A stretch of 64,000 nt of DNA from a bacterium (GTDB lineage Bacteria; Oederibacteriota; CAKKQC01): assembly GCA_919901855.1 (NCBI GenBank), contig CAKKQC010000010.1, positions 43,214 through 107,213 on the forward strand. The letters run 5' to 3'. Position numbers and translations under genes: made by a program. The notes below the pieces were generated by a model. That model saw nothing but the letters and a program-made list of their open reading frames with translations. It made no database searches and had not been told where the DNA came from. Position 1 is the stretch's first letter, and every line of letters begins with the position of its first letter. Positions 6,422 through 31,702 of the stretch are shown piece after piece.

Positions 6422-6709
6422 ATGAACACGGCTATGTCATTCATCAATACCGTGACCCTGAAGAACGAGGCCAACAAGGTGATCCGCCGGGTCACCCGGT
6501 CGCGGGCGCCGGTTATCGTGACGCAACGCGGCAAGCCTGCCGTCGCCATCATCCCGGTTGATGATGGCGCGCTCGAGCTCTCGTATGCTCACCGCTACCA
6601 GGCGGCGATCCAGGAGGGACTGGCCGACTACCGGGCCGGTCGTCACGTGCCTCTGGGCGCGTTCGTCAAGAAGCACTTCCCCCGGCACGTCGAGCGCCTG
6701 TCGCGGTAG
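6422..6709 (+). CDS. Type II antitoxin, Phd/YefM family
   Basis: RBS GGGAGG 7 nt upstream; N-terminus MSFINTVTLKNEANKVIRRV...PVIVTQRGKPAVAIIPVDD is Phd/YefM-like; followed 16 nt later by toxin gene. Confidence 0.65.
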   Translation: MNTAMSFINTVTLKNEANKVIRRVTRSRAPVIVTQRGKPAVAIIPVDDGALELSYAHRYQAAIQEGLADYRAGRHVPLGAFVKKHFPRHVERLSR

Positions 6710-6725
6710 CGCTCCAGAGTCGGCG

Positions 6726-7046
6726 ATGCCGGCCGAATCACAGGGTGCCACCGGACCCGTTGGCCTCCCGGCTAATGCCCGGCTCTTGGCGCGTGCCGAA
6801 CGCGATCTGCTCGACCTGCTCCGCCGTAATCCCCGGGAAGCGCTGCGAGTCATCGAGGACATCATCCGGCTGGCGCGCCGTGACCTCCCCTTGGGTCAGG
6901 TGAAGAAACTGCCGGGCATGGGGGTGAACCGGGAGCTTTCCAGCGGCCGCTTTCGCGTCGTGCACTTCTGGAACAATGGGCGGCTCTTCATCGTGACCGT
7001 CTTCCCCAAGAAGGATCAGCGCAAAGTCTTCCGGCATCTGCCATAA
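6726..7046 (+). CDS. Type II toxin, RelE/ParE family
   Basis: C-terminal RVVHFWNNGRLFIVTVFPKKDQ is RelE/ParE-like; size ~106 aa; directly downstream of antitoxin. Confidence 0.65.
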   Translation: MPAESQGATGPVGLPANARLLARAERDLLDLLRRNPREALRVIEDIIRLARRDLPLGQVKKLPGMGVNRELSSGRFRVVHFWNNGRLFIVTVFPKKDQRKVFRHLP

Positions 7047-7124
7047 CCGCCGCCGGGGAGTTGCGGGTCCTCAGTAATTGGGGGACGTGCTGAGCAAGTT
7101 ACGCGCGAGAAGTGGCCACGGTCT

Positions 7125-8402: not shown

Positions 8403-8464
8403 AGTGCCGTTATCGTAGCGCGTTGTCCGGCCGGTCTTTCGCCGGGGGCGGCGGGGGTGCGATA

Positions 8465-11511: not shown

Positions 11512-11515
11512 TCCC

Positions 11516-12151
11516 GTGCCGATGCTGCTCGAGCCCGGCGACGTGGTCGTGTTCCAGGGCGACAGCATAACGGACGCCGGGCGGGACCGCGGAGTCGCGG
11601 ACTCGATGGGGTCCGGATACGCCATGATCGCCGCGGGGTGGTTCTCGGCCGCGTATCCCGACCGGTGCGTCCGGTTCATGAACCTCGGGATCAGCGGCGA
11701 CCGGGTGAAGGATCTCAAGGCGCGGTGGCAGGCCGACTGCGTCGGCCTGCGTCCGACGTGGATCTCGATCCTCGCCGGCATCAACGACGTCTGGCGGCGG
11801 TACGACTCGGACGACCCGACTCCCGTCGAGGCGTTCCGGGCGGGGTATCGCGACCTCCTGACGGCCGCGCGCGCCGCGGGGGACGCGCACGTCATCATTA
11901 TGGAGCCCTTCCTGCTTCACGCGAAGCCGGGGCAGGAGCGCTGGCGCGAGGACCTGGACCCCAAGATCGCGGCGGTCCGGGAGCTGGCGGCCGAGACGGG
12001 CGCGATCCTGATCCCGCTCGACCGGCTCTTCGCGGACGCCTGCCGGCGCCAGGATCCCGCGTTCTGGGCCGCCGACGGGGTGCACCCGACGCCCGCCGGG
12101 CACGCGCTGATCGCCCGGGCGTGGCTGGACGCGGTCGGGGGGGCTTGCTGA
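11516..12151 (+). CDS. SGNH/GDSL hydrolase family protein
   Basis: GDS block VVVFQGDSITDAG near N-terminus; C-terminal DGVHPT (catalytic Asp/His block). Confidence 0.75.
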   Translation: MPMLLEPGDVVVFQGDSITDAGRDRGVADSMGSGYAMIAAGWFSAAYPDRCVRFMNLGISGDRVKDLKARWQADCVGLRPTWISILAGINDVWRRYDSDDPTPVEAFRAGYRDLLTAARAAGDAHVIIMEPFLLHAKPGQERWREDLDPKIAAVRELAAETGAILIPLDRLFADACRRQDPAFWAADGVHPTPAGHALIARAWLDAVGGAC

Positions 12152-12966
12152 TGGCGACGATCCTGCTCCGGGCGGCCTTCGCCGGCTACCTGGGCGGGAC
12201 GCTCGCGTTCCTGGGGTACCTGGCGACGAGGCGGCACGGGCTGGCGAAGATCGGGCTGGGCCTCTCGGTGGCGGCCCTGGCGGTGCACACGGCCTCCTAC
12301 GGCACGGACTGCGCCGTGTACCGGGCGATGGTGATCGTGACCCCGCGCGGCATGTGCTCGCTGCTCGCGTTCGTGACGGCGGCGCTGACTCTCGCGATCG
12401 CCGCGCGCCACCGGCTCCTGATCCTGGGCGCGTTCATCATGCCCATCGTCGCGATCCTCGCCGGCGTCGCGGTCGCGGCTCCCGAGCCCGGGACCCCGGC
12501 GGTCGTCCTCCAGGGCCCGCTCTTTCCACTGCACGTCTGGACCACCTACCTCGGGTTCGCGGGGTTCACGGTCGCGTTCGGCGTGGCCGTGGCGTGGCTC
12601 GTGCAGGAGCGCGAGATCCGGTCGCGCCATCCCAAGCCGCTCGCGTTCGTGCTCCCGCCGTTGGACACGATCGAGCGGCTGAGCCTGTCGCTCGTGAACC
12701 ATGCGCTCCTGCTGACGGGGGCGGGCATCGTGACGGGCGTCCTGTACCTCAAGCAGACCGACGGCGTGTGGTGGGCGTGGGAGCCGAAGGCGACGGCGAC
12801 CGTTGCCTGCTGGGGAATCTACGCGGCGGTACCCGTGCTTCGCCGGACGGCGGGCTGGCGGGGCCGCCGGCTGGCGCTCCTCCTCGTCGCCGGGTTCGTA
12901 TTCGTCGTCTTCATCTTTGGTGGCCTCAGCCACCTGCCCGGGCCGCTCAAGCCGGGTCCGCGCTAG
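12151..12966 (+). CDS. Cytochrome c assembly family membrane protein (HemX-like, CcsA family)
   Basis: Polytopic membrane protein with WAWEPKATAT region; TGATG overlap with upstream gene; position immediately upstream of hemA as in hemAXCDB operons. Confidence 0.6.
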   Translation: MATILLRAAFAGYLGGTLAFLGYLATRRHGLAKIGLGLSVAALAVHTASYGTDCAVYRAMVIVTPRGMCSLLAFVTAALTLAIAARHRLLILGAFIMPIVAILAGVAVAAPEPGTPAVVLQGPLFPLHVWTTYLGFAGFTVAFGVAVAWLVQEREIRSRHPKPLAFVLPPLDTIERLSLSLVNHALLLTGAGIVTGVLYLKQTDGVWWAWEPKATATVACWGIYAAVPVLRRTAGWRGRRLALLLVAGFVFVVFIFGGLSHLPGPLKPGPR

Positions 12967-12976
12967 CCCTCCAGCC

Positions 12977-14269
12977 ATGGGCCTGCTGTGCCTGGGCCTG
13001 TCGCATCGCACGGCGCCGCTCGCCGTGCGGGAACGCCTGGCGTTATCCCGGGACGAGATCGCGGAGGCGGCGGCCATGGTCCGGCGCCTCTCCGGCATCG
13101 ACGAGGCCGTGGTGGTGTCCACCTGCAACCGGATCGAGCTCTACATCGCCGGGGCCGGCCGCGCGGCCGGGCCGGCCGAGCCGCCCGGGGTGGCGTGGCG
13201 CCGCACCGTCGGCGCGGTCGTCCGGCTCCTCGCCAAGGCTCGCCGGGTGCCGGCGGGCGTCCTCGCCCGGTCGTCGTACGTGCACGCGGACCTCGACGCC
13301 GTGCGCCACCTGATCGAGGTCGCGGCCGGCCTCGACTCCCAGGTCGTGGGGGAGGCCCAGATCCTGCCCCAGGTGCGCCGCGCCCACGAGGCCTCGTTGC
13401 GCGCGGGCGCGACGGGCCCGGTCCTGAACGGCGTCTTCAACCGGGCCCTGGCCGCCGCCAAGCGCGTTCGCACCGAGACCGAGATCGGACGGCTGCCGGC
13501 GTCCGTGAGCTCGGTCGCCGTGGACCTCGCGGAACGGATCTTCGGCGAGCTGGCCGGGCGCACGGTGCTCCTGATCGGGACCGGCGAGACGGCGGAGCTC
13601 GTGGCCGAGAACCTGGTCGGGGACAGCGATCTCATGGTCCTGGTGGCGAGCGAGCGGCACCACGAGGCCGCCCGGCGAATCGCGCACCGGTTCGGGGGCG
13701 AGGCCATCGAGCTCGCGGCGGTGCCGGCTGCGCTGGCCCGCGTGGACATCGTGATCGCGGCCACGGCGGTCAAGGAACCGGTTATCCTCCGGGCCCACCT
13801 CGCCGCGGCCATGGCGCACCGCAAGGCGCGCCCCATCTTCCTCGTCGACCTCGGCGTCCCGCGCAACATCGAGGCGGGCGCCGGCGACGTGGCCGGCGTC
13901 TACCTCTACGATCTCGACGACCTCAAGGGGGTGGCGGACGGCAACCTGAAGCGCCGGGAGGAATGGATCGCGCCCGCGCGCCGCATCGCGGAGGCGGAAG
14001 TGGCGGCGACCGGAGCGTGGCTCGCCACCCTCGAGGTCGTCCCCGTCATCCGCGACCTCGAGCGGTTCGGCGAGGCCTGCCGGCAGGCCGTGCTGGCGCG
14101 CGCCGGCCGGCGCGTGCGCGACCTGCCGCCGGAGACGCGGGAGGAGGTCGAGTACCTGACGAAGGCGCTGGTGGCCAAGCTGCTGCACCCGCCGATCCGC
14201 AACCTCAAGGACCTGCCCGGTCCGGGGCGGTACGCCGACCTCGTGCGCCGGCTCTTCGGATTCCAGTGA
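12977..14269 (+). CDS. hemA: Glutamyl-tRNA reductase
   Basis: N-terminus MGLLCLGLSHRTAPLAVRERL...VVVSTCNRIELY is the HemA signature. Confidence 0.9.
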   Translation: MGLLCLGLSHRTAPLAVRERLALSRDEIAEAAAMVRRLSGIDEAVVVSTCNRIELYIAGAGRAAGPAEPPGVAWRRTVGAVVRLLAKARRVPAGVLARSSYVHADLDAVRHLIEVAAGLDSQVVGEAQILPQVRRAHEASLRAGATGPVLNGVFNRALAAAKRVRTETEIGRLPASVSSVAVDLAERIFGELAGRTVLLIGTGETAELVAENLVGDSDLMVLVASERHHEAARRIAHRFGGEAIELAAVPAALARVDIVIAATAVKEPVILRAHLAAAMAHRKARPIFLVDLGVPRNIEAGAGDVAGVYLYDLDDLKGVADGNLKRREEWIAPARRIAEAEVAATGAWLATLEVVPVIRDLERFGEACRQAVLARAGRRVRDLPPETREEVEYLTKALVAKLLHPPIRNLKDLPGPGRYADLVRRLFGFQ

Positions 14270-15198
14270 TCGCCGCGCCGTTGCGGCTCGGCACGCGGGG
14301 GAGCCCGCTCGCGCTCGCGCAGGCGACGCTCGTGGAACGCACCCTCGCGGCCGCGCACCCCGGCCTAGTCGTGGAGCGGATCGTGATCAGGACGACCGGG
14401 GACCGGGCCCCGCAGACGGGGTCATTGGAAACAGGCGGGCCGATGCCGGGCAAGGGCGTCTTCGTGAAGGAGATCCAGGAGGCCCTGCTCGCGCAGGTCG
14501 TGGACGTCGCCGTCCACAGCCTCAAGGACCTGCCCGTCGAGCCCGTGCCCGGCCTCACTCTCGCCGCGGTCCTGCCCCGCGAGGACGTGCGCGACGCGTT
14601 CTGTTCCCGGGACGGCCGGACGCTGGACGAGCTGGAGCCGGGCGCGCGGGTGGCGACCGGGAGCCTGCGGCGCGAGACCCAGCTCCGCCGGGCCTACCCG
14701 CACTTCGCGTTCGTCCCCATTCGCGGCAACGTGGACACGCGGCTGCGCAAGGTTCGCGAGGGCCAGGCTGAAGGCACGATCCTGGCGCGCGCCGGGCTCG
14801 TGCGGCTCGGGCTGGAGGCGGCGGTTACGGAGCTGATCCCGGCTGCCGTGTGCCTGCCCGCGCCGGGCCAAGGCGCGATCGGGTGCGAGGTGCGGAGCGA
14901 CGACCGGGTCACGGGCGATGTCATCCGCTGCCTCGACCATCCGGCGACCATGACCGCGGTCGTCGCCGAGCGCGCGTTCCTGCGGCGGCTCGGCGGCGGC
15001 TGCCGGACGCCGATCGCGGCCTGGGGACAGCCGGAGCCCAAGGGGACGATCACGCTCCACGGGTTCGTCGGGAACCCGCGGGGACCCGAGTTCCTCGCCT
15101 CGTCGGTGACCGGACCCGCGACCGGGGCGGAGGCGCTGGGCACGAGGCTGGCCGAGCGTTTCCTCGCCGAGGGCGCTGCCGCGTTCCTGACGGAATGA
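14266..15198 (+). CDS. hemC: Hydroxymethylbilane synthase (porphobilinogen deaminase)
   Basis: GTG start overlapping hemA stop; LRLGTRGSPLALAQA N-terminus; GGGCRTPIAA cofactor-binding region. Confidence 0.9.
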   Translation: MIAAPLRLGTRGSPLALAQATLVERTLAAAHPGLVVERIVIRTTGDRAPQTGSLETGGPMPGKGVFVKEIQEALLAQVVDVAVHSLKDLPVEPVPGLTLAAVLPREDVRDAFCSRDGRTLDELEPGARVATGSLRRETQLRRAYPHFAFVPIRGNVDTRLRKVREGQAEGTILARAGLVRLGLEAAVTELIPAAVCLPAPGQGAIGCEVRSDDRVTGDVIRCLDHPATMTAVVAERAFLRRLGGGCRTPIAAWGQPEPKGTITLHGFVGNPRGPEFLASSVTGPATGAEALGTRLAERFLAEGAAAFLTE

Positions 15199-15986
15199 CC
15201 CGGCCGCCGCTGGCCGGCGTGCGCGTGGTCACCACGCGGGAAGGGCCCGCGGATCCGGTGCTGGCTCGTCACCTTCGGCTGGTCGGAGCCCGCGTGATCG
15301 GCTGCCCGGCGATCCGGCTGGAACGGATTACCCGCCCGCGAGGCGCGGTCGCCGTCGTGCGGCGGTGGCCGGCGTTCGACTGGATCGTCTTCACGAGCGC
15401 CGCCGCCGTCCGTGACTGGAACCGGTTCCGCCGGGCGAGAAGGCTGGGTCCGCGGGGACCGCGGGCCGCCGCGGTGGGACGCGAGACCGCGCGCGCGATC
15501 CGGAACGTCCTCGGCCTCCGCGTGGCCGCCATGCCGAAGAGGTTCTCGGGGGACGCGCTGGCCGGCGCGCTCGGCCCGGTCCGCGGCCTCAGGATCCTGA
15601 TCCCGCGCGCCCTCGTGGCCCGCGAAGCCCTGCCGCGCGAGTTGAGGCGGCGGGGGGCCACGGTCACGATCCTCCCGCTCTACCGGACCCGTCCCGACGC
15701 GCAAGGGCTTCTGGCCCTCCGCCGCCTCGTCCTGGCCGGCCGCGCCGACTGGGTGGCGTTCGCGAGCCCGTCGGCCGCGGCGTCCGTCTTCGGCGCCCTG
15801 GGCGTGGCGGGGCGCCGGGCTTTCCGGGCGCGCGTCCGGGCCGCCTCGATCGGCCCCACCACGTCGGCGGCGCTTCGCCGCCGGGGGCTGCCCCCGGCGG
15901 CGGAAGCGGCGACATCGACCATGGCCGGCCTCGCGAGGGCGATCCTGCGGTACCATCGGAGGAGACATGTCACCCCGGCTCGCTGA
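15195..15986 (+). CDS. hemD: Uroporphyrinogen-III synthase
   Basis: ATGA overlap with hemC; ~263 aa; position between hemC and hemB; HemD-like fold pattern. Confidence 0.75.
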
Positions 15987-16953
15987 TCTCCGTGTCCGCC
16001 CGCGGCGCCTGCGCCGTTCCGAGGCCCGCCGCCGGCTGGTCCGCGAGACCGTCCTCACTCCGGACGATCTCGTCATGCCGTACTTCGTCATCCCCGGCCG
16101 CCGGCGCCGGGAGCCGGTTCCGTCGATGCCCGGCGTCGAGCGGCTCACGGTGGACGAACTAGTCCGCGAGGCCGCGGCGCTGTTCCGGCTCGGGGTGCCC
16201 GGCGTCATCCTGTTCGGCCTGCCGTCCCGCAAGGATGCGACCGGCAGCGAGGCGTGGTCCGGTTCCGGCGCCGTTCAGCAGGGCGTCCGGGCGCTCAAGC
16301 GGGCCGTGCCGGATCTCGTCGTCATGACCGACGTTTGCCTGTGCGAGTACACCCACCACGGCCACTGCGGCGTGTTCCACGGCGGCGAGGTGGACAACGA
16401 CGCGACCCTGCCCCTGCTGGCAAAAGCCGCTCTGTCGCACGCCCGCGCGGGAGCGGATCTCGTGGCGCCGTCGGACATGATGGACGGGCGCGTGCGCGCG
16501 ATCCGGCGGGCGCTGGACCGGGCCGGATTCGCGCGGACCGGCATCCTCGCCTACGCGGCCAAGTACGCGTCCGGTTTCTACGGGCCCTTCCGCGAGGCCG
16601 CGGGGTCCACGCCGCGCTCCGGGGACCGGCGGGGCTACCAAATGGACCCGCCCAACGCGCGCGAGGCGATGCGCGAGATCGCCCTCGATCTCGAGGAGGG
16701 GGCGGACGCGGTCATGGTGAAACCCGCGCTCGCGTACATGGACGTGATCCGGATGGCGCGGGAACGGTTCGATGCGCCGCTCGCCGCCTACAACGTGAGC
16801 GGTGAGTACGCGATGGTGAAGGCCGCCGCCGCGCGGGGGTGGCTGGACGAGCGCCGGGTGGTCCTCGAGATCCTGACGGGGCTGAAGCGCGCCGGGGCCG
16901 ACTTCATCCTCACTTACCACGCGAAGGACGCGGCACGGTGGCTGCGCGGGTGA
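15967..16953 (+). CDS. hemB: Porphobilinogen synthase (delta-aminolevulinate dehydratase)
   Basis: RPRRLRRS...MPYFV N-terminus and [17 protein letters not shown] metal site. Confidence 0.9.
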
Positions 16954-19046: not shown

Positions 19047-19088
19047 GTGTTACCTGTCACATCTTACCCCAGCCGGACCGCTCTATCC

Positions 19089-19125
19089 TTGACAGGCGGC
19101 CCGGGGGGGACGAAGATAGACCCGG
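19089..19125 (+). promoter_or_regulatory. Candidate promoter region upstream of the 19174 operon (perfect TTGACA -35 hexamer)
   Basis: TTGACA at 19089-19094 in a GC-rich intergenic region shared with divergent PilZ gene; -10 element not clear. Confidence 0.25.
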
Positions 19126-19173
19126 GAACAGGATCGCCGTGCGGAGAGTTGCTTGTACGGGAGGAGAACATAC

Positions 19174-20658
19174 ATGAAAAAGGTACTCGTTCTTGCCATC
19201 ATCGCCCTTGCGGCCGTCACGGTCGCCGGGAGCGTCTTTGCCGAAAGCCGGATCGTGGCGATGTCCGGCATCGTACGCGTCTCGCCGCCGGCCCAGCCCG
19301 GGAGCGAGACGTGGTCGCAGGCCGCGGTGGGGCAGCCCCTCGTCGCCGGAAGCCTCGTGATGACGGGCGAGAACAGCCGCGTTTCGATCGAGGTCAGCCC
19401 GGGCAACACGGTCCGGCTCCGGGGCAACGCCAAGATCGTGATCGGAGGTCCCCAGGGCCGGACGACGCGGTTCAAGCTGCTGTCGGGAGTCCTGCGCGGG
19501 GCGTTCAACCGGCTCACGGGCGGGGAACGGTTCGAGGTCGAATTCTCCTCCATGAGCGCCGTCGCGTCCGTGAAGGGCACGACGTTCGAGGCCGAGGAGG
19601 GCTCCAACGGGGCGAGCATCCGCACGCTCTTCGGCGCGATCGAGATGGCCCTGAGCGGAGGCTCCCAGAGCATCCCGCAGGGTTGCGGCCTCTTCGTGAC
19701 GCCGGGCGGCGTGATCCAGATCCGGCCGCTGACCGAGGGCGAGATCCAGGACGGGCTGGGCAAGGGCCAGGGCAACCGGCTGGATCTGCATGACTTCGTC
19801 CAGAACTCCCGGGACGCGGCCGCCGCGGACCAGGACATCATCGTCCAGATCCGGGAGGACGACTTCGCGGTCGGTCGGAGCCTCCGGGACGTGCACGGGA
19901 ACCTGGCGCGGGTCGACCAGCGGCTGGTCCGCCCCACCCCCTACTCGATCGAGTTCGTTAACATCGTGAAGCGGGATTCCTACCGTTACAACGGCAAGTT
20001 CTCGTACGCCGGCTCCCCGGGTCCCCGGTTCGACTACCTCATGGGCCGGATCGACTTCAACATGGGGCTCCCGGACAAGGTCGTGGCTTGGCCCGGGTTC
20101 TTCATGGACAACAAGGACACGCTCAAGGCGACGCACGCCTTCGTGGAGCTCGCCAACGGCCGCCTCGGGCACGCCACCCTGGTCGTCCGGCGGGACACGA
20201 ACTTCGGGGACAACGAAGGGGACGCTTTCAAGCTCAACGGCCTCCCCTTGATCGTGGACGGCGACGCCCCGACCACGGACGCCGACGGGCACGAGGCCGG
20301 CGACCTCTGGGCAACGACGGTCATGACGGCCTACGGCGACACGAACGCCAACGGGATCCTGGACCTGGGCGAGAAGACCCTGGCGAACCGGGTGGACCTC
20401 CGGATGGAGGCCTATGTGCTCAACGCGACCGGCAAAGTCCTGAATGTGGGCGACTTCACCGGGAACGCGCTCAACGATCCGTTCGGATTCGCGAAGACGG
20501 TGGCCATGGAGAGCATCCTGTCGTTCGCGGATTACCGGCCGGCGGGCACCGCCGTGGCGGCGGGGAACAACATCGACCTGATCGTCATCCCGGACCTCGT
20601 GATCGCGATCGCCGAGAGGTTCGGACCGAGCCTGGCGACGGTCGACACCGGCAACTGA
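19174..20658 (+). CDS. Secreted protein with N-terminal FecR-like domain
   Basis: RBS GGGAGGAG before ATG; signal peptide MKKVLVLAIIALAAVTVAGSVFA; FecR-like beta-rich N-terminal region; long C-terminal region of unknown function. Confidence 0.5.
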   Translation: MKKVLVLAIIALAAVTVAGSVFAESRIVAMSGIVRVSPPAQPGSETWSQAAVGQPLVAGSLVMTGENSRVSIEVSPGNTVRLRGNAKIVIGGPQGRTTRFKLLSGVLRGAFNRLTGGERFEVEFSSMSAVASVKGTTFEAEEGSNGASIRTLFGAIEMALSGGSQSIPQGCGLFVTPGGVIQIRPLTEGEIQDGLGKGQGNRLDLHDFVQNSRDAAAADQDIIVQIREDDFAVGRSLRDVHGNLARVDQRLVRPTPYSIEFVNIVKRDSYRYNGKFSYAGSPGPRFDYLMGRIDFNMGLPDKVVAWPGFFMDNKDTLKATHAFVELANGRLGHATLVVRRDTNFGDNEGDAFKLNGLPLIVDGDAPTTDADGHEAGDLWATTVMTAYGDTNANGILDLGEKTLANRVDLRMEAYVLNATGKVLNVGDFTGNALNDPFGFAKTVAMESILSFADYRPAGTAVAAGNNIDLIVIPDLVIAIAERFGPSLATVDTGN

Positions 20659-20674
20659 TCCCGGAGGCCCTGAG

Positions 20675-21436
20675 ATGAACCACGTGATTCGAGCGCTATC
20701 CCTGTGTTTCGCGGTCGTCTGGGCGTCCGCGGCTCCCGCGTCGATCAAGAACGAGCTGATCCGGATCGGCGAGGCTGTCCTCACGAAGATCGCGCTCGAC
20801 CCGGCGGACTTCCTCTTCGACATCCACCTGAACGCGGAGGATCGCACGCCCCTCCCGATCGACAAGGACGGCCAGGTTGGGATGAATGTCTTCCCGGCCC
20901 TGATCCCGTTTACGGAGGTAAACCTCTCGGGAAAGGCCAAGCTGCACCGGGAACACGCGGGATGGCCGCAGATCGATATCAACTTCGGAGGGTGGAACTC
21001 GATCGCGGGCATGGTGGCGAGTGGCATGGTCGAGGACTTCAAGGGCGGGCTGTACGGATACCACGGCGGAATCTCGGCGGCCGTTTCCGCGGACCCGCGG
21101 CTGCGGCTCTTTGGGGGATACGAGTTCTCCCAGATGCGCGTCGACGTGACCGTCAACTTCAAGGACTCCTCGACGAGTACGGGAACGGGGTTCGACCTCC
21201 AGAACTCGCTCTCGCACCTGAACGTGGGGAAGACCGAGCACTTCCTGTTCGCGGGCGCCGAGGTGCTCAGGTCCGCGCGGAAGCGGCTCGTGGCGGAGGT
21301 CGGATACGGAGTCGTCAGCAACAAGCTGATGGCGCGGCTGACCTGGTCCTCCAAGAACTTCGACAGCGGATTCGTCTTCTTCCCCGAGAGTGCATGGGTC
21401 TTGTGGCCGGTGTGGAACTTCCAGGTGCGGTTCTGA
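20675..21436 (+). CDS. Hypothetical secreted protein, possible outer-membrane beta-barrel
   Basis: N-terminal signal peptide; alternating beta-strand-like pattern; C-terminal residue Phe. Confidence 0.45.
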   Translation: MNHVIRALSLCFAVVWASAAPASIKNELIRIGEAVLTKIALDPADFLFDIHLNAEDRTPLPIDKDGQVGMNVFPALIPFTEVNLSGKAKLHREHAGWPQIDINFGGWNSIAGMVASGMVEDFKGGLYGYHGGISAAVSADPRLRLFGGYEFSQMRVDVTVNFKDSSTSTGTGFDLQNSLSHLNVGKTEHFLFAGAEVLRSARKRLVAEVGYGVVSNKLMARLTWSSKNFDSGFVFFPESAWVLWPVWNFQVRF

Positions 21437-22866
21437 TGCGTTCCGTGGTGCTCACCGCGCTCGTTCTTGTGCATGGTATGGCCATGGCCGCCGACGCTGG
21501 CAAGCAGGGCGGGGCCGCGCCCGCGACACCGGCTGCTGCCGCTCCGGCTGTTGAGAAGCCCGCCGCCGCGCCCGCGGCGGATGTCGCGACGGCGACCGCT
21601 CCGGTGGCCACAACCGCAACCGCGACGGCAACGGCGGCTCCCGTCCAGGCGTCCGCAGCGGACGTCGCCGCGGACATAGCGGCGGACGAGGCGGCGGACG
21701 CCGCCGCCGAGGCCGGGACGAAGCGGGGCCTGGTGCCGTTCTATGCGTTCCATTTCAGCGAGGGATTGAGTCTGCCCAACATCGGCGGATTCTTCTTCGG
21801 GAACAAGATCGGGTCCACGGTCGGGGGGAAGGTCGTCCTCACGCCCGAGCAGAGCCTGTTCGGGGCCTACGAGCTGAGCTATGAGGGACCGGGCATGCGC
21901 GCCCAGGAGGGCCACGAGTTCCGGGAGCGTTCGATCGACCATTCGATCTCGGCCGGTCACGCCTGGAAGGTGTCGCCCGCGTACGTCGTGAGCTCCAGGA
22001 TCCAGTACATGAACGAGTTCCGCCGGACGGGCGCGAACGAGTCGTTCGGCAACGGGCTTTACGACTACTGGTCGCTGGGCCTCGCGGAGCGCGTGGACCT
22101 CGGGATCGTCCCGGGCGTGCCGCTGGGGGCCGGCCTCGCCTACGCCTACGTCCGGTTCCCGAACTACACCGACCTCCTGCAGGAGTTCATGTCCGCATCG
22201 GTCAACTCCGAGCTGTCCGGGGGCCAGCAGGATTACCACCGGATCCGGTTCGATGCGGACGGCAGGTTCGGAGGGGACCGCGGGCGCGGCTGGCTGTCGG
22301 TCTCGATGCTGGATTTCATCAAGGCGAGGGTCGTCACGGGCTTCGGCACCGCGGCCGGGCCGAGGCAGGTCGATTACGTGACGGAGCTCGGCGGATCGTG
22401 GAAGGCCGCGGTCGCCCAGACGGATTCCATGGCGATGACGGCGGAACCCGTGCTCCGGGTGACGATGCGGAACTCGAACCAGAACTTCCTGCGGTTCCGG
22501 CACTTCGGCGACACGCTGCCGTCCTTCATCAAGGGCAACTACAACTACGTCTCGCCGTCGCTCGGGGTTCCCGTGCGGTGGGAATGGAAGAACGGGCGAT
22601 CGCTCTTCTTCGCGCCGACCTACGCCCTGCTCGCCTACGGATCGCGGCCCCCGCGCGACACGGCCAACGAGTACCGGGTGGGCAAGAAGCAGTTGAACCA
22701 GACGCTGATCCTCGCGATGGGTTACACGTCGAAGTTCTACGCCTACTCGTCGTGGACGTTCGGGTACGCGGTGCAGGTACAGAAGTCGAACAACCGGTTC
22801 GAGAAGTTCCTGCCGTACAACTACACCGGGCATCTCTTCTACACGTCGCTAGATATCACATACTAG
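21436..22866 (+). CDS. Hypothetical secreted protein, possible outer-membrane beta-barrel, with Ala/Thr/Pro-rich N-terminal linker
   Basis: TGATG overlap with upstream gene; signal peptide; low-complexity A/T/P linker; aromatic-rich body ending in Tyr. Confidence 0.45.
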   Translation: MRSVVLTALVLVHGMAMAADAGKQGGAAPATPAAAAPAVEKPAAAPAADVATATAPVATTATATATAAPVQASAADVAADIAADEAADAAAEAGTKRGLVPFYAFHFSEGLSLPNIGGFFFGNKIGSTVGGKVVLTPEQSLFGAYELSYEGPGMRAQEGHEFRERSIDHSISAGHAWKVSPAYVVSSRIQYMNEFRRTGANESFGNGLYDYWSLGLAERVDLGIVPGVPLGAGLAYAYVRFPNYTDLLQEFMSASVNSELSGGQQDYHRIRFDADGRFGGDRGRGWLSVSMLDFIKARVVTGFGTAAGPRQVDYVTELGGSWKAAVAQTDSMAMTAEPVLRVTMRNSNQNFLRFRHFGDTLPSFIKGNYNYVSPSLGVPVRWEWKNGRSLFFAPTYALLAYGSRPPRDTANEYRVGKKQLNQTLILAMGYTSKFYAYSSWTFGYAVQVQKSNNRFEKFLPYNYTGHLFYTSLDITY

Positions 22867-22887
22867 CCTGATATAATCTCCCCGTTG

Positions 22888-22960
22888 GGGGCAGTAGCTC
22901 AGTTGGGAGAGCGCGTCGTTCGCAACGACGAGGTCACCGGTTCAATCCCGGTCTGCTCCA
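22888..22960 (+). tRNA. tRNA-Ala (anticodon CGC)
   Basis: 73-nt cloverleaf: acceptor GGGGCAG/CTGCTCC with G3:U70, D-arm GCTC-AGTTGGGA-GAGC, anticodon loop TTCGCAA, T-arm ACCGG-TTCAATC-CCGGT; CCA not encoded. Confidence 0.9.
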
Positions 22961-22973
22961 CGTCATTGTGGCC

Positions 22974-23561
22974 ATGCTGAATGATGCGGTGTTGCTCCTG
23001 AACTCGACGTACGAGCCGCTGAACGTGATCAACGTGAAGCGGGCCCTTCGGCTCGTCCTGACTCGCAAGGCCGACCCCGTCGAGGCCGACGGCGCGATCG
23101 TACACACGATCACGAGGTCGTTTCCGCTGCCGGTCGTGGTGCGGCTGGCCTACTACGTGCGGCGGCCCAACCAGCGGGTGAAGTTCACGAAGCGGACCGT
23201 GCTCGCGCGGGACCAGCACACGTGCCAGTACTGCGGCGCGCAGACGCGCGACCTCACGCTCGACCACGTCCTGCCGAAGACGCTGGGCGGTGAGACAATC
23301 TGGACCAACGTCGTGGCGGCCTGCAAGAAGTGCAACGGCGCGAAGGGCGGCCGCACGCTGAAGGAGGCGGGGCTCAAGCTCCGGCGCGCGCCCCGCGAGC
23401 CGCGGTTCCTGCCGTACCTGCGGCTGGTCAAGAACTCCTACCAGCGGGCCTGGGACAAGTACCTGTTCACGGACCCCGAGAGCCCGTTCCTGCTGCGCGG
23501 TCCCCTGCCCGTGGCCGTCCCGGGCCGCGTGCATCGCCGCACCGCTCCCGCGTTGGCCTGA
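22974..23561 (+). CDS. HNH endonuclease
   Basis: Conserved N-terminus LLLNSTYEPLNVI; HNH core CQYCG...LTLDHVLPK...GGET...W.N.V.AC..CN..K. Confidence 0.8.
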   Translation: MLNDAVLLLNSTYEPLNVINVKRALRLVLTRKADPVEADGAIVHTITRSFPLPVVVRLAYYVRRPNQRVKFTKRTVLARDQHTCQYCGAQTRDLTLDHVLPKTLGGETIWTNVVAACKKCNGAKGGRTLKEAGLKLRRAPREPRFLPYLRLVKNSYQRAWDKYLFTDPESPFLLRGPLPVAVPGRVHRRTAPALA

Positions 23562-23566
23562 CGACC

Positions 23567-24871
23567 GTGCCGTTTCAGGCGTGGGCGATCCCGTGGCTGG
23601 GTAACGAGCTCCCGAGGGCCGTCGTGGGCTATCTCTTTGCCGTGGCCTGCTACTTCACCGTGGGGGCGAGCCTGCTCATGGTCGTGCTCGAGCACCGGGC
23701 GCAGCGCGAAGGGAACCAGTTCCTGCTTTCGTTCCTCCAGGATTGGAGCCGGTTCATCCTGCTCATGACGACGGTCCTCGGGCTCGTGCTCGCGGCGGGG
23801 GCGTGGCTGGTCGCCGCCGTCACCGAGCCGGCGGCGGTATTCGTCCTGACGCGGGTGTTGTTCTGGGTCTGGGGCATTCTCTGGGTGCTTGCCGGGCTGG
23901 CGCTGTGCTCCGGCCTCCTGCACTACAGCGGGTGGGGGGCCGTGGCGCCCGGGCACCACCTCGTGGTCGGTTGGGTGATGGCGGGCTGCGCCTGGGGCTC
24001 GCTGTTCGTGGTCAACGGCATCCTCGCCTTCCTCCTGGATCCCGGAGCCTGGCTGGAGACCGGCCGTCTGCTGGACGGCTTCTTTAACGCGACGTTCAAC
24101 CCGTCGCTCCTCGTGCATGCCGGTCTCGCGCTCGGCATCGGCGGCCTCTTCACCCTCGTGGCCGGGGCCGAGACCGACCCGCCCCGCCTGCGGTCCGTGC
24201 TCGTCCGAACGGCCTCGTGGTTCGCGCTGGCCGGGTTCACGCTCGCGCCGGTCGGGGAGGCGTGGCAGGTCGCCGTCATGCCGCCGGCGGCGCGCGAGGC
24301 GTTGTTCGGGCCGTCGGGGCACGGTCCCGGCGTGTTCGCGATCGGTCCCGCGCTCGCGATCCTGATCGTCGCCTTCCTGGCCACCGGGCCGCTCGTGCGG
24401 ACGGCCGTCACGCCCCGGCCGCTGGCGTTCCTGCTCCTCCTGCTCGGATTGGCCGCCGCGGGCGTGAGCGGCTGGTCGCGCGAGGCCGCGCGCGCCCCCT
24501 GGGTGATCTCCGGGTATCTCCAGGTCAACGGACTGGGGCCCCGGGAAGCTAATGCCGCGCGCGTCGAGGGCTTCCTGCGCCGGGCCCGGTACGCCCGCTC
24601 GCGGACGACCGCGAACGCGGCTGCCGGGGAACCCGCGTCCGCGGGTCAGGAACTCTTCCGGTTCCAGTGCGGGTGCTGCCACACGACCACCGGGGTGCGC
24701 GGCCTGCGCCGCATCGTGCAGGGGTGGGATGTCGAGACGATCGACCACCAGCTTGGACGCCTCGAGAAGCTGCGGGGGGTGATGCCGGCATTCGCCGGGA
24801 CGGACGCCGAGCGCCGGGCGTTGGCGCGCTGGCTCGCGTCCCTGGCGGTCCCGAAGGGGGGGAAGCCGTGA
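23567..24871 (+). CDS. Polytopic membrane protein with C-terminal c-type cytochrome domain
   Basis: Multiple TM helices followed by FQCGCCHTTTG (CxxCH heme-binding motif) and a downstream Met (GVMPAF); start codon uncertain (GTG 23567). Confidence 0.55.
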   Translation: MPFQAWAIPWLGNELPRAVVGYLFAVACYFTVGASLLMVVLEHRAQREGNQFLLSFLQDWSRFILLMTTVLGLVLAAGAWLVAAVTEPAAVFVLTRVLFWVWGILWVLAGLALCSGLLHYSGWGAVAPGHHLVVGWVMAGCAWGSLFVVNGILAFLLDPGAWLETGRLLDGFFNATFNPSLLVHAGLALGIGGLFTLVAGAETDPPRLRSVLVRTASWFALAGFTLAPVGEAWQVAVMPPAAREALFGPSGHGPGVFAIGPALAILIVAFLATGPLVRTAVTPRPLAFLLLLLGLAAAGVSGWSREAARAPWVISGYLQVNGLGPREANAARVEGFLRRARYARSRTTANAAAGEPASAGQELFRFQCGCCHTTTGVRGLRRIVQGWDVETIDHQLGRLEKLRGVMPAFAGTDAERRALARWLASLAVPKGGKP

Positions 24872-26040
24872 GCGGCGTGCCCGGTCCCGGCCTGTTCCCG
24901 CTTCCCGCATCGCCGGGAGTCCTGCGGGGACTCGAGCTCGCGATGGCCGTCGTGGCGGCGGTTCCCGCGTCGCTCGCCCTGGGGTGGCCCGTGCTCACGC
25001 TCGTCGCGGAAGCCGTCGGGCGGGGCGGCGCGGAGATCTCGCTGCGGCGCCTCGCCGCCTGGCTCGCGCGCCGGACGCCCGGCGCGGTCGTGCTCGCGAT
25101 CGGGCTCGCGTTCCCGCCCTTCCTGCTCGGCCTCGCGCTCTACGGGGAGGCCGTCCTGAGCGCGGCCGCGCAGATGGCGTGGTTGTGGCTGGCCGTGATC
25201 CCGCTCCTGTTCCTCGGCGTGGGATCGTCCTTCTGGGTGGCCCTGCGGCGCCGCGGCGCGGAACCGTCCACCCTGCGGCCCTTCCTGCCCGACGTCGTCG
25301 AGAGCTACATTCTCGCGTTCCGGCGGCGCGGGATCGAGCGGGCGGGCGCCGCGGTGACGGTCCTCTGCCTCGTGTCCCTGTTGGGCGTGGGGTTCGTCCT
25401 GGTGGCCCACGGCGTTCTCGTGGCCCGGCCCGACCTGTGGGGGCCGGTCGCGGGGATCCCCGACGGGTGGGGCCTGCCGCTGCGCGATCCCCAGCTCCTG
25501 CCCCGCCTGCTGTTCGCCCTGCTCGGGGCGCTGGCGCTCTCGGGGTTCGCGGTGGCCTGGCACGGCGCGGACCGGGAGGCGGCCGGCGAGGCGGCCTACG
25601 GGCGGGCCGCGCTCCGGTTCGGGGTCGTGTGGTTCGGCGCCGCGACGGCGCTGGAGCTGCTCGCGGCCGTCTGGCTCGTCCTGTCCCTGCCCGGCCCGGT
25701 GGGGAAGGCCGCGCTGGCGGGCGGGGCGGGGTCCCTGCTGTGGACGGCATTGGGGGCGGCGGTCGCGGCCGTGACGCTGGCCGTCGTGGCCGCCGCCGCC
25801 GAGGAGCCGCGCCAGTACGTGCTGGGGGCGGCCGTCGCGGTGGCGGTGTCGCTGATCGCCGAGACGGCGGTTCGACAGCGGATCAGGGACGCGGCGCTCG
25901 CCGGCATCCCGGACATCGCGCTGCGCGCCGGCATGCTCCAGCCGGGGTCCATGATGCTGTTCATCGTGGTCTCGGTCCTGGGCGCCGGGCTGGTCGCGTA
26001 TCTCCTCTGGGCCACCTCGGGATCCCGCCGCGCCTTCTGA
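24868..26040 (+). CDS. Polytopic membrane protein, unknown function
   Basis: GTGA overlap with upstream gene; ~10 predicted hydrophobic helices; no recognisable motif. Confidence 0.45.
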   Translation: MSGVPGPGLFPLPASPGVLRGLELAMAVVAAVPASLALGWPVLTLVAEAVGRGGAEISLRRLAAWLARRTPGAVVLAIGLAFPPFLLGLALYGEAVLSAAAQMAWLWLAVIPLLFLGVGSSFWVALRRRGAEPSTLRPFLPDVVESYILAFRRRGIERAGAAVTVLCLVSLLGVGFVLVAHGVLVARPDLWGPVAGIPDGWGLPLRDPQLLPRLLFALLGALALSGFAVAWHGADREAAGEAAYGRAALRFGVVWFGAATALELLAAVWLVLSLPGPVGKAALAGGAGSLLWTALGAAVAAVTLAVVAAAAEEPRQYVLGAAVAVAVSLIAETAVRQRIRDAALAGIPDIALRAGMLQPGSMMLFIVVSVLGAGLVAYLLWATSGSRRAF

Positions 26041-26056
26041 GGCCGTTCCGCCTCCC

Positions 26057-26599
26057 GTGATCCTGTGCCTCGGCCTCTCCCTGCGGCAGGCGTCGTTCAA
26101 TGTCCGGTTGGCCCGCGCGGCCGCCACTCTGGTCCGCGAGGCCGGAGCCGGGGCGGAGCCGGTCGCGCTGCGCGACCTCGGGATTCCGCCATACGACGCC
26201 GATGTCGAGGCGACGCTGGGGATCCCCGCGCCGGTGCACGACCTGGCGGAGCGGGTTCGCTCCGCCCGCGGGGTGATCATCGCCTTCCCCGAGTACAACC
26301 GGGCGATGGCCGGCGTGGCCAAGAACGCGATCGACTGGCTCTCGCGCGTGCGACCGTACGTCTTTGAAGGCAAGCCCGCGCTCCTGCTCTCGGCCTCGTC
26401 GGGGCGGGGCGCCGGCGCCGCCGCCCTGGCGACGTCCCGCCCCATCCTGGAACACGTGGACGCCGTCGTGTACGCGGAGACGTTCGGGCTGGCGCGCGCG
26501 AAGGAGGCTTTCGACGAGGCGGGCGTGATCGCGGATCCGGAGACGGCCGTCCGCCTCCGCGCGGTCATCGCGGGCTGGCTCGCCTCGCTTCCTTCCTGA
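26057..26599 (+). CDS. NAD(P)H-dependent FMN reductase family protein
   Basis: N-terminus ILCLGLSLRQASFN matches the flavodoxin-like GSxRxxSxN pattern; ~180 aa. Confidence 0.65.
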   Translation: MILCLGLSLRQASFNVRLARAAATLVREAGAGAEPVALRDLGIPPYDADVEATLGIPAPVHDLAERVRSARGVIIAFPEYNRAMAGVAKNAIDWLSRVRPYVFEGKPALLLSASSGRGAGAAALATSRPILEHVDAVVYAETFGLARAKEAFDEAGVIADPETAVRLRAVIAGWLASLPS

Positions 26600-27866
26600 C
26601 CCCCAACGACAAGGCGCTGCCCGCGAGGAGCGTCACCGCGAGCGTCCACAACCCGGCCTGGTAGCTCCCCGTCCTGTCGCAGATCTTCCCGACGATCACG
26701 GGTCCAACGAACCCGCCGGCGTTGCCGACCGAGTTGATGAGGGCGATGCCGCCCGCGGCGGCAGTGCCGGTGAGGAAGGTGCCGGGCAGGCTCCAGAACG
26801 GCCCGAGGGTCCCCCAGATGCCGCCGGCCGCCACGCACAGGGCGGCGAGGGCGAGCCACGGGTGGGCCTGCTGGAAGACCCCGGCGGCGAGGAGGCCGCA
26901 GGCCCCCGCGGCCGCAGGTACGGCCACGTGCCAGCGCCGCTCGCCCACGGCGTCCGAGTGGTGGCCGATGGCGACGATCGAGACCGTGGCGGCGAGGTAG
27001 GGCAGGGCGGTCAGCACCGAGGCCTGCGCGTTCGTGAGCCCCCCGAAGCTCTTGAGGATCTGCGGCAGCCAGAAGACGACGCCGTAGTAGCTGATTATGA
27101 GGGCGAAGTAGGTCAGGCACAGGTGCCACACCCGCCCCGAGGTCAGCGCCGCGAGCAGGCCGGCCGCATGCTCCCCGCGGACGGTAGCGTGCTCGCGCGC
27201 GATGCGCGCGCGCAGCCAGGTCCGGTCGGCCCCGGGCAGCCAGGCCGCGTCCTCCACGCGGTCGTCGAGCCGCCGCAGGACGACGAGGCCGAGTAGGGCC
27301 GCCGGCAGCCCCTCGAGCAGGAATAGCCACTGCCAGCCCGCCAGACCGAGCGTCCCCTTCAGCCCCATGATCCATCCTGCCAGCGGCCCGCCGATCACGC
27401 CGGAGAGCGACGTCGAGGTCAGGAACCACGCCGAGGCCCGCGCCCGGTCGCGCGCCGGGATCCAGAACGTCAGGTAGTAGATGATGCCGGGGAAGAACCC
27501 CGCCTCGGCGAATCCCAGCAGGCACCGGAGGACGTAGAACCCGGTCGCGGTATGCACGAACACCATGCACGCCGTCAGGAGGCCCCAGGACACCATGATC
27601 CGCGCGATCCACCAGCGGGCGCCGACGGCCTCCAGGATCAGGTTGCTCGGGACCTCGAAGAAGACGTATCCGACGAAGAACATGCCCGCCCCCAGCCCGA
27701 AGACGGTCGCGCTGAACCCGAGGTCGACCCGCATCTCGAGGGCCGCGTAGCCGACGTTGACCCGGTCGATGTAGTTCATCATGTAGCAGAGGAAGAGGAA
27801 GGGGATCAGCCGCCACATCACCGTCGAGACGACGCGCTTCTCGCGAGCGATCGGGGACTCAGCCAC
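26565..27866 (-). CDS. MFS transporter (anion:cation symporter-like)
   Basis: 12 TM-like helices; MFS signature region LIPFLFLCYMMNYIDRVNVGYA; G-rich loops. Confidence 0.8.
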   Translation of the reverse strand: MAESPIAREKRVVSTVMWRLIPFLFLCYMMNYIDRVNVGYAALEMRVDLGFSATVFGLGAGMFFVGYVFFEVPSNLILEAVGARWWIARIMVSWGLLTACMVFVHTATGFYVLRCLLGFAEAGFFPGIIYYLTFWIPARDRARASAWFLTSTSLSGVIGGPLAGWIMGLKGTLGLAGWQWLFLLEGLPAALLGLVVLRRLDDRVEDAAWLPGADRTWLRARIAREHATVRGEHAAGLLAALTSGRVWHLCLTYFALIISYYGVVFWLPQILKSFGGLTNAQASVLTALPYLAATVSIVAIGHHSDAVGERRWHVAVPAAAGACGLLAAGVFQQAHPWLALAALCVAAGGIWGTLGPFWSLPGTFLTGTAAAGGIALINSVGNAGGFVGPVIVGKICDRTGSYQAGLWTLAVTLLAGSALSLGVRKEARRASPR

Positions 27867-30613: not shown

Positions 30614-31702
30614 ATGGCCATATTGCGCGAAGCAACCAAGGAAGTTATCTGCAAGATCGTCTACCACGGCGCCGGCCGGAGCGGGAAGACGACCAGCCTG
30701 CTGCATATGAACCACCGGCTCGCGCCGGGCCAGCGGGGCCAGTTCATCACCCTGGAGACTCCGACCGAGCGCACGCTCTTCTTCGACCTCCTTCCGGTCA
30801 AGGTGCTGGCGGGCGGGTACTCGTTCCGCTACCTCGTCTTCGCGACGCCGGGGCAGGAGTACTACCACGCGAGCCGGCGGTTGGTCCTCAAGGGCGCGGA
30901 TGCCATCGTGTTCGTCGTGGATTCCCAGCGCGAGCGTGCGCAGGACAACTGGGAATCGTGGGAGCTCCTGGAAAAGAACCTCAAGGAGCTCGGCCAGCGC
31001 GCCGACGCCCTTCCGCTCGTCATCCAGTACAACAAGCGGGACCTGCCGAACGCGATGCCGCTGGAGGAGGCCGAGCGCCGCTACAACGTCCGCCGGTCGT
31101 TCTCGTTCCCCGCGATCGCGCGGACCGGCCAGGGCGTGTACGAGACCTTCCTCACGGCGGCCAAGCTCGCGCTCACGCGCCTCTCCCTGCCCGGGGCCGA
31201 AAACGCGATGGGGGAGCTGTTCCACTCGCTCGTGATCACGGAGGACGACGGCGACCGGCTGACGAAACAGCTCGCGAAGCTGAACATCGAGAGTGGGGCG
31301 ACCACCTCGTTCCTCGTGGAGGAGAGCAGCGGCATCATCGCCTCCGCGGGCACCTTGCCCGCCGGGGACCAGGAGGCGCTGGGGGCCATCCTGGCCTGCA
31401 ACTTCATGGCCGCGCAGGAGCTGGCCGGGAACCTCGCGGGCGCGAGCTTCGCGGGCACCGTCCAGCGGGGCCGCCAGTGGATCCTCCGTTCCATGCGCGT
31501 GGACCAGCGCAGGTTCGTGGTGACGGCCTGCGGGCGCGGCGCCGCGTCGCGGAAGGTACGGGACGCCATGCTCTACGCGCGCGGAGCGCTGGGGGCGCAA
31601 CTCAAGATGGTGGACCAGATGTCGCCGAACCGCCTCAGGCAGGCGCACGAGGTCTTCAGCTCGGTGACCGCGATCGCGGTCCACGAACTGGGAAAGGCGT
31701 AA
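30614..31702 (+). CDS. mglA: MglA-like Ras-superfamily GTPase fused to a C-terminal roadblock/LC7-like domain
   Basis: G1 GAGRSGKTT, switch II ATPGQE, G4 NKRD, and near-colinear similarity to MglA from memory over residues 1-195; residues ~200-362 show the same pattern as the downstream roadblock protein. Confidence 0.75.
   Translation: MAILREATKEVICKIVYHGAGRSGKTTSLLHMNHRLAPGQRGQFITLETPTERTLFFDLLPVKVLAGGYSFRYLVFATPGQEYYHASRRLVLKGADAIVFVVDSQRERAQDNWESWELLEKNLKELGQRADALPLVIQYNKRDLPNAMPLEEAERRYNVRRSFSFPAIARTGQGVYETFLTAAKLALTRLSLPGAENAMGELFHSLVITEDDGDRLTKQLAKLNIESGATTSFLVEESSGIIASAGTLPAGDQEALGAILACNFMAAQELAGNLAGASFAGTVQRGRQWILRSMRVDQRRFVVTACGRGAASRKVRDAMLYARGALGAQLKMVDQMSPNRLRQAHEVFSSVTAIAVHELGKA

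Follow-up and report, generated by a model that had tools for sequence, protein, structure and literature searches.

Within the cytochrome bd superfamily, the OR-C1 type was described by Murali, Gennis and Hemp (Murali et al. 2021) as a CydA without a Q-loop, with eight helices and a C-terminal haem c domain, encoded adjacent to a paralogue that is mostly annotated as "hypothetical protein". The entries of their OR-C1b list are mostly haem-c-less "hypothetical proteins" encoded beside OR-C1a genes, and OR-C enzymes conserve three residues, H19, E99 and E107 in E. coli numbering, which correspond to H24, E105 and E112 in the OR-C1a reference (Murali et al. 2021). A related case is the archaeal CydAA' of Caldivirga maquilingensis, in which the duplicated CydA' subunit (qOR4b) has I98 and A107 where E99 and E107 would be found, and has lost the b558 ligands (Murali et al. 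2021, Supplementary Table 6). Here, we describe two adjacent genes, referred to as gene 2 and gene 3, in a stretch of 64,000 nucleotides (nt) from contig CAKKQC010000010.1 of assembly GCA_919901855.1 (positions 43,214 to 107,213, forward strand), hereafter the window. The two genes follow a tRNA-Ala gene and a gene encoding an HNH endonuclease, and they almost certainly constitute an OR-C1a/OR-C1b pair of the cytochrome bd superfamily. While the OR-C1 type is already known, the version found in Candidatus Coatesbacteria is a derived variant, and it probably forms an OR-C1-type bd-like complex that has lost the classical site and gained a role at the cytoplasmic face. The features of the pair, with coordinates in the window, are:

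23567-24871, plus strand: gene 2, an OR-C1a-type CydA-like subunit with a C-terminal class I cytochrome c domain, 434 amino acids (aa), 8 transmembrane (TM) helices.
24668-24682, plus strand: CGCCH haem c attachment motif of gene 2 (C368, C371, H372), read from the translation.
24868-26040, plus strand: gene 3, an OR-C1b-type partner subunit, 390 aa, 9 TM helices.
25243-25347, plus strand: clade-specific 35-residue basic cytoplasmic loop of gene 3, LRRRGAEPSTLRPFLPDVVESYILAFRRRGIERAG, read from the translation.

An initial annotation of this locus, made from the sequence alone, reported a polytopic membrane domain combined with a C-terminal CGCCH in gene 2, and the motif indeed lies at 24668-24682, inside the Cytochrome_CBB3 domain that Pfam places at residues 357-423. 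It also held that this architecture could not be assigned to a respiratory complex, a view that is no longer tenable, as profiles, folds and gene pairing identify the two products as OR-C1a and OR-C1b, and homology and structure searches with the products of 23567-26040 led to a known oxidase family. Direct Pfam and NCBIfam scans revealed the cytochrome c domain only in gene 2 and no match in gene 3, and the gene 2 product is 100% identical to NCBI protein P0001, "cytochrome c [Candidatus Coatesbacteria bacterium]". In gene 2 homologues at 31-37% identity, PF01654 (CydA) is found together with one or two cytochrome c domains, and the gene 2 family profile matches CydA of Geobacillus thermodenitrificans (5doq_A, E 2.6e-7, residues 9-320). 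The AlphaFold2 (AF2) model of gene 2 (predicted local distance difference test score, pLDDT, 83.8) displays 8 TM helices followed by the cytochrome c domain, with short inter-helix loops, while that of gene 3 (pLDDT 83.9) displays nine helices. Foldseek searches returned bd subunits exclusively among the top 18 PDB matches of the gene 2 model and the top 14 matches of the gene 3 model, all being CydA or CydB chains at E 5e-6 to 2e-2 and TM-scores of 0.4-0.66. For gene 3, hhalign against the partners encoded directly downstream of canonical PF01654-positive OR-C genes gave a probability of 99.5-99.8%, and the gene 3 clade aligned with the gene 2 family at 64% only (E 6e-5, colinear). A narrow profile of the gene 3 clade matched nothing in the PDB, and the broadened family profile had 5doq_A as its sole PDB match (E 1.2e-3). 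The hidden Markov models (HMMs) of the two families cross-match at 1e-6 to 1e-14, and paralogy of gene 2 and gene 3 thus appears supported, mainly by these cross-matches and the fold searches.

The two families are adjacent in nearly all of 80 loci, taken from the best species-representative genomes carrying relatives. In total, relatives were found in at least 540 species-representative genomes of Acidobacteriota, Armatimonadota, Eisenbacteria, Methylomirabilota, Bacteroidota, Zixibacteria, Desulfobacterota and other phyla, and the partner (gene 3) family comprises 799 representative clusters. Several arrangements were observed among them. A metagenome-assembled genome (MAG) of an uncultured bacterium (L039, 6001-9729) carries a three-gene variant of the cassette, in which a single partner gene comes after two tandem OR-C1a-like genes. 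In loci of Desulfobacterota and Bacteroidales (L058, L059, L063, L069, L081, L084), the partner gene is located upstream of a CydA-like gene of ~880 aa. Across the loci, there are seven proteins of the gene 2 family with eight CxxCH motifs.

Like OR-C1, the window pair has a CydA-like subunit I of eight helices without Q-loop or quinol site, a C-terminal CxxCH domain on the predicted periplasmic side, and an adjacent CydA-derived partner of the OR-C1b type, whose counterparts are annotated as "hypothetical protein". Features of quinol-oxidising bd (qOR) are absent, as there is neither a Q-loop nor an equivalent of M393, which together with H186 ligates haem b558; the equivalents of M393 and E445 are lacking because the gene 2 chain ends after helix 8 and the cytochrome c domain. 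His131 (E. coli H126) and Ser145 (S140) are kept, and the numbering is colinear with that of the OR-C1a reference (H24, E105, E112, H131). However, the residue feature of OR-C1 does not hold, as the H19/E99/E107 equivalents are absent from gene 2 of the window, and the pair is therefore classed as a derived OR-C1 variant rather than a plain member. Since gene 2 lacks E99/E107 and is annotated as "cytochrome c", it was also considered as an OR-C1b-type protein. This was rejected, as its nearest relatives are a-type, its numbering follows the OR-C1a reference, and its downstream neighbour is an OR-C1b homologue.

The losses are shared by a whole clade, defined here as copies more than 50% identical to the gene 2 protein of the window. 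While H24, E42, E105, E112, H131 and R184 are present in all 81 complete canonical gene 2 homologues, H24, E105, E112 and R184 are absent from all nine distinct clade copies. Hydrophobic residues take the place of H24, E105 and E112 (E. coli CydA H19, E99 and E107), which are expected to ligate and serve the high-spin haem site in canonical relatives; the window carries F24, L105 and A112. The alignment has no gaps in these helices, where invariant Trp, Gly and Pro residues serve as anchors. Gene 2 of the window has H184 at or next to the H186 column, where H, Q, M, L or N is found across the clade. The partner subunit is affected as well. Its helix-1 and helix-5 histidines, which align with H21 and H186 of G. 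thermodenitrificans in the broadened profile, are both present in 35 of 35 sampled canonical partners, whereas none of the 27 clade partners retains the helix-1 histidine (the H19 equivalent) and 13 retain that of helix 5, where the window has Phe216. On the other hand, C368, C371, H372 and the distal Met406 are invariant in the gene 2 alignment, leaving the haem c site intact.

The clade has also gained features. The 35-residue loop, an insertion at residues 126-160 of gene 3, is nearly invariant in the 27 clade members, whereas the canonical partners examined have 8-16 residues at this position; AF2 confidence is low at the loop. Only about five partner clusters at 50% identity align with the clade profile over its full length without interruption, which would be expected if the loop is present. 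In addition, His232 of gene 3, located in an AWHGADR motif, is invariant in the clade, and His43 and His130 of gene 2 are frequent, while His131 is invariant in both clade and canonical sequences. Residues that are invariant in the clade and rare in canonical relatives fall almost entirely in cytoplasmic helix halves and loops (11/12 in gene 2 and 45/48 in gene 3). This shift of constraint to the cytoplasmic face suggests that a new surface for docking, sensing or catalysis has arisen there. In our literature search, no report was found of a complex with what appears from the alignments to be a coordinated loss of H19/E99/E107, the H19 equivalent having gone from both subunits, together with a new cytoplasmic module.

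The nearest parallel is CydA' of C. maquilingensis, likewise a duplicated CydA-type subunit without the proton-channel glutamates and the b558 ligands. In qOR4b, however, H19 is retained, and its partner subunit qOR4a is fully catalytic; in the window pair, the H19 equivalent is missing from both subunits, and there is no catalytic partner next to them. The canonical CydAB enzymes (E. coli bd-I and G. thermodenitrificans bd; PDB 6rko and 5doq) share the fold of both subunits (Foldseek TM-scores 0.5-0.66) and the pseudo-symmetric heterodimer. They differ in that the window pair has a fused cytochrome c and lacks the Q-loop, the quinol site, M393, E445, H19, E99 and E107, at an identity of 12-16%.

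The clade consists of Candidatus Coatesbacteria MAGs and related metagenome contigs and was found in only two of the best 80 species-representative genomes, namely one Coatesbacteria MAG and one unclassified MAG. It forms a long branch: the median TM-domain identity to canonical sequences is 31%, against 50% when canonical sequences of many phyla are compared with each other. Purifying selection acts on both genes. Relative to locus L091, where the products of gene 2 and gene 3 share 82-83% identity with those of the window, the ratio of nonsynonymous to synonymous substitution rates (dN/dS) amounts to 0.167 in gene 2 and 0.199 in gene 3. Together with the invariant haem c site, these ratios argue that the pair is not decaying. 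By name only, we take the Coatesbacteria to be the GTDB phylum RBG-13-66-14. The residue-filtered survey of Murali et al. 2021 scored that phylum as without any bd family.

Based on these observations, the gene 2 and gene 3 proteins would form a CydA/CydB-like heterodimer. The even helix count, with basic loops on the other side, predicts a periplasmic location for the cytochrome c domain, where haem c would be attached by System II (ResB, CcsA) and DsbD encoded in the window itself. DsbD supplies reductant for cytochrome c maturation. The System II and haem biosynthesis genes form a cluster at 8423-16953, ~6 kb upstream of the locus, and HemC/D/B are syntenic in L001 and L091. The genes in question are:

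8423-9640: ResB-like protein (System II).
9568-11511: Cytochrom_C_asm protein, CcsA- or HemX-like.
11638-12966: Cytochrom_C_asm protein, CcsA- or HemX-like.
12803-14269: HemA.
C-terminal part of the open reading frame (ORF) 12988-15198: HemC.
14850-15986: HemD.
15967-16953: HemB.
46229-48046: DsbD, full-length (DsbD_N, DsbD_TM and thioredoxin-like domains).

Mutation of H19 or E99 in the E. coli enzyme leads to loss of haems b595 and d. Since gene 2 has lost the equivalents of H19, E99 and E107 and gene 3 that of H19, the bd high-spin haem site would not form as in relatives and classical O2 reduction becomes unlikely, so that we have moderate confidence that oxidase function at the classical site has been lost. 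Instead, the bd-fold module may have been reused as a scaffold or transducer with a cytoplasmic functional surface, for example for docking of or signalling to a cytoplasmic partner, with the periplasmic haem c as redox-active input. The cassette would be transcribed together with tRNA-Ala(CGC) and the HNH gene from a conserved extended -10 promoter, and the FMN (flavin mononucleotide) reductase gene that follows the pair would be an incidental neighbour specific to this genome. More tentatively, it could be speculated that the dead-oxidase scaffold acts as a transmembrane redox sensor or as an electron or signal relay, with haem c as input and a cytoplasmic output or active site. A possible, similarly tentative, output surface would consist of the 35-residue loop of gene 3, its His232 and its clusters of acidic residues and arginines, along with the helix 1-2 hairpin of gene 2.

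Several points weigh against this interpretation. Haem could still bind via other residues, such as His131, the common His43, His130 and His184, or the invariant His232 of gene 3, and the pair may be complemented by a catalytic CydA-like subunit from another part of the genome, the search having covered the window. The gene 2 homologue of L010 (5003-6004) is only 333 aa long and lacks the cytochrome c domain and CxxCH, yet is followed by an intact gene 3 homologue; this reflects either a true domain loss, in which case haem c may not be essential to the function of the clade, or an assembly error in the contig. The support for the predicted co-transcription consists of gene spacing and a consensus promoter match. 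Finally, our literature search returned neither experimental or biochemical work on OR-C members nor an analysis of respiration in Coatesbacteria, so that even the canonical OR-C function, O2 reduction with cytochrome c as donor, stands as a published inference.

The pair could alternatively be an ordinary functional OR-C1 cytochrome c:O2 reductase in which the substitutions are tolerated or the ligands have moved, for example to His131, His43/His130, His184, Tyr29 or His232 of gene 3. The retained fold, haem c domain and two-subunit organisation, the purifying selection on both genes and the new histidines of the clade all fit such an enzyme, and bd oxidases are known to swap haem positions and ligands, as a comparison of the enzymes of E. 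coli and Geobacillus shows (Murali et al. 2021, supplement). However, the three equivalents of H19, E99 and E107, kept in every one of the 81 complete canonical relatives, were lost together in this clade only. The replacement histidines H43, H130 and H184 are missing in part of the clade (L007, L008, L010, P0012), which further weakens the case, and clade-specific constraint is cytoplasmic, whereas the bd haems lie near the periplasmic side. Considering also that H19 and E99 substitutions abolish haem b595/d binding in E. coli, we regard an active oxidase as rather unlikely, though it is the strongest of the alternatives.

A bd-like complex without its classical site would make the clade a natural mutant series, in which the fold, haem c and selection are kept and three otherwise invariant residues are discarded. 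It thereby shows which parts of the scaffold are needed beyond oxygen reduction and directs attention to the cytoplasmic face. OR-C is a widespread bd branch, and the clade also offers an experimental handle on an uncharacterised enzyme family. Automated annotation names gene 2 "cytochrome c" and leaves the retrieved relatives of gene 3 unnamed, and a survey scored the phylum as without bd. In metabolic models of Coatesbacteria, the pair should therefore be taken into account, but not as a terminal oxidase.

The pair is embedded in a compact locus, in which the remaining features are:

22850-22877, plus strand: promoter-like site, TAGATA, 16-nt spacer and TG-extended TATAAT, a consensus match with putative function.
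22888-22961, plus strand: tRNA-Ala, anticodon CGC (ARAGORN).
22974-23561, plus strand: HNH endonuclease, 195 aa, with a conserved N-terminal domain (Pfam HNH_5, HNH).
26057-26599, plus strand: FMN reductase family protein, NAD(P)H-dependent, 180 aa (gene 4; Pfam FMN_red).

The order given by the initial annotation, namely tRNA-Ala, HNH, membrane c-type cytochrome, second membrane protein and FMN reductase, is confirmed by ARAGORN, Pfam and translation. All genes lie on one strand, with spacings of 12, 5, -4 and 16 nt and no terminator-like site between them. The last three values agree with the 5-nt gap, the overlap and the 16-nt gap reported earlier, while the 14 nt given between tRNA-Ala and HNH becomes 12 nt when counted from the conserved ATG at 22974 (MLNDAV...), which is common to the 195-aa NCBI protein P0200 and its relatives; an in-frame GTG is found at 22968, 6 nt after tRNA-Ala. 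Gene 2 starts 5 nt after the HNH stop codon, and the GTG start of gene 3 at 24868 overlaps the gene 2 stop by 4 nt (GTGA), gene 3 being translationally coupled to gene 2. The FMN reductase gene begins 16 nt downstream of gene 3. After tRNA processing, the leader of the HNH mRNA would be just ~12 nt long, without a Shine-Dalgarno sequence.

The promoter-like site ends 10 nt 5' of tRNA-Ala and is the sole sigma-70-like match in 22400-27000, where 0.1 is expected. TGnTATAAT occurs upstream of the tRNA in six of seven aligned loci (window counted), in DNA of ~70% GC. As there is neither space nor signal for a further promoter 5' of gene 2, a single transcript spanning tRNA-Ala, HNH, gene 2 and gene 3 is likely.

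Upstream of the tRNA are genes encoding a FecR-domain protein (19153-20658), a 253-aa protein without family (20675-21436), and a product of a gene at ~21.4-22.87 kb with no family match in relatives. The same trio (FecR-like, ~250-aa and unannotated 420-500-aa) is syntenic in most lineage loci. A long antisense ORF on the minus strand (19057-22833, 1258 aa) is probably an artefact of high GC. Downstream, tRNA-Ser(cga) at 53590-53678 lies ~30 kb from tRNA-Ala, compared with ~9 kb in L001 and L002, indicating that the region between the tRNAs has been expanded or rearranged in this genome.

The HNH product matches Pfam HNH_5 (3e-14) and HNH (6e-11), i.e., families PF14279 and PF01844, with a motif reading CQYCG...DHV...N...CKKCN. 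In the family alignment, D97, H98, N112, C84, C87, C117, C120 and N121 are invariant. Residues 4-166 match phrog_16726 (9e-36), and at least 6150 homologues were found at E<=0.001. Two other identities were rejected. An RNA-guided IscB/Cas9 is not supported, as the NCBIfam IscB match reaches 52 bits, below the cutoff of 175, and spans the HNH segment alone (residues 71-134), and the Cas9d match likewise covers the HNH domain only; for a defence system, PADLOC gave generic HNH-domain matches to PtuB and PDC-M01B, with no defence partner nearby.

Whether the HNH is a housekeeping gene or marks a tRNA-associated insertion had been left open in the initial annotation, which proposed comparing the tRNA-Ala flank across relatives. 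This comparison placed HNH directly after tRNA-Ala(cgc), at 9-26 nt, in all seven other HNH-bearing loci of the Coates lineage (L001, L002, L007, L008, L009, L010, L091), making the adjacency 8/8 with the window counted. The presence of HNH at the same post-tRNA site in every HNH-bearing locus of the lineage argues against a recent insertion, whereas a link to tRNAs at the level of the family was borne out. The family occurs on at least 582 IMG/VR contigs, and tRNA genes lie within 1.5 kb of HNH in 30 of the best 80 viral loci, many inside tRNA arrays, with the tRNA ending 13-35 nt before the HNH start in several of them. One contig (L092; ENA ERZ27248239 k141_1314216, 164 kb, 47% GC) encodes an HNH 65% identical to that of the window inside a 24-tRNA array spanning 8.5 kb (1-8543). 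HNH is also the commonest coding sequence in published tRNA arrays (PMC5966550, PMC6409571). At the level of the family, the association of HNH with tRNA genes is real.

This abundance in phages and tRNA arrays would be expected if the tRNA-HNH junction were a mobile insertion, i.e., a homing endonuclease or a tRNA-targeted island, with the cytochrome genes as cargo. However, the same junction and upstream genes recur in loci whose membrane proteins are only 45-83% identical, and the HNH protein is more conserved than its neighbours (75-89% identity across the Coates lineage; dN/dS 0.155 relative to L091). No second copy of the tRNA-Ala 3' end, as an att-like repeat, was found elsewhere in the window, no integrase-family match was found among the neighbouring genes scanned, and the GC content of the region (0.70-0.77) is like that of the rest of the window (~70%), with no break at tRNA-Ala. 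The patchy presence, repeats or integrase, and atypical composition expected of a mobile element therefore appear to be lacking. Moreover, the canonical OR-C cassettes of other phyla have no HNH neighbour, and L012 carries the membrane pair without HNH. We therefore consider a mobile insertion improbable; rather, the HNH gene appears to be a long-standing, vertically inherited resident.

The junction would then represent a stably inherited chromosomal example of the known HNH-tRNA array association. The HNHs of phage, plasmid and mycobacterial tRNA arrays (PMC5966550, PMC6409571) likewise lie directly beside tRNAs, but in the window the tRNA is a single chromosomal gene, synteny is conserved, purifying selection is strong and nothing points to mobility. 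The likeness to the mycobacterial array HNHs is one of position, and that to SegB in the T4 tRNA region is by analogy (PMC2330249).

The FMN reductase product is a full-length match to Pfam FMN_red (PF03358; 1.8e-32, 112 bits against a cutoff of 24), yet falls below every NCBIfam equivalog cutoff (SsuE 32.7 bits against 164; ArsH 29.5 against 292). It is thus a member of the PF03358 family (SsuE, ArsH and ChrR/YieF-type) at the family level, with no equivalog assignment. No homologue was found by tblastn in loci L001-L091. In relatives, the position after gene 3 is occupied by a gene encoding Pirin, YceI, GH4 or a PQQ_2-domain protein, or by an unannotated gene. A 207-aa gene beside a major facilitator superfamily (MFS) transporter gene in L091 was considered as an FMN reductase and rejected, as it is not one.

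The initial annotation treated the four genes as a coupled unit, which would correspond to one module passing electrons from the FMN reductase through the pair to the periplasmic haem c, or in reverse, with HNH as a regulator. The tight spacing on one strand without terminator-like sites fits this idea, the conserved cytoplasmic face could serve as a docking site, and a redox- or quinone-related gene lies downstream in three loci (FMN_red here, Pirin in L001 and YceI in L009), which is at most a weak hint. Yet the downstream gene differs in almost every relative, and the FMN reductase homologue is absent even from L091, whose gene 3 product is 82% identical. In L007 and L008, a methyltransferase gene splits HNH from the membrane genes, canonical OR-C cassettes lack HNH, and no conserved transmembrane haem chain is evident. 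HNH and the membrane genes are linked by synteny alone and are neighbours, not partners, and the FMN reductase appears to lie outside any conserved unit, making a four-gene module very improbable. Weakest of all, the notion that the pair is a decaying, pseudogenised oxidase without function, as the lost catalytic residues, the long branch (31% against 50% median identity) and the one member without a cytochrome c domain might suggest, can be given hardly any credence in view of intact reading frames in every locus, dN/dS values of 0.17-0.20, the dozens of residues that are invariant specifically in the clade, and the acquisition of a 35-residue loop with hardly any variation across 27 sequences.

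Two further genes of the window are unrelated to the bd-like pair. A DUF6785/DUF6784 membrane protein is encoded on the minus strand at 37273-39255 (E 1.5e-121), and a 362-aa protein at 30614-31702 shows a weak match to Ras-family GTPases.

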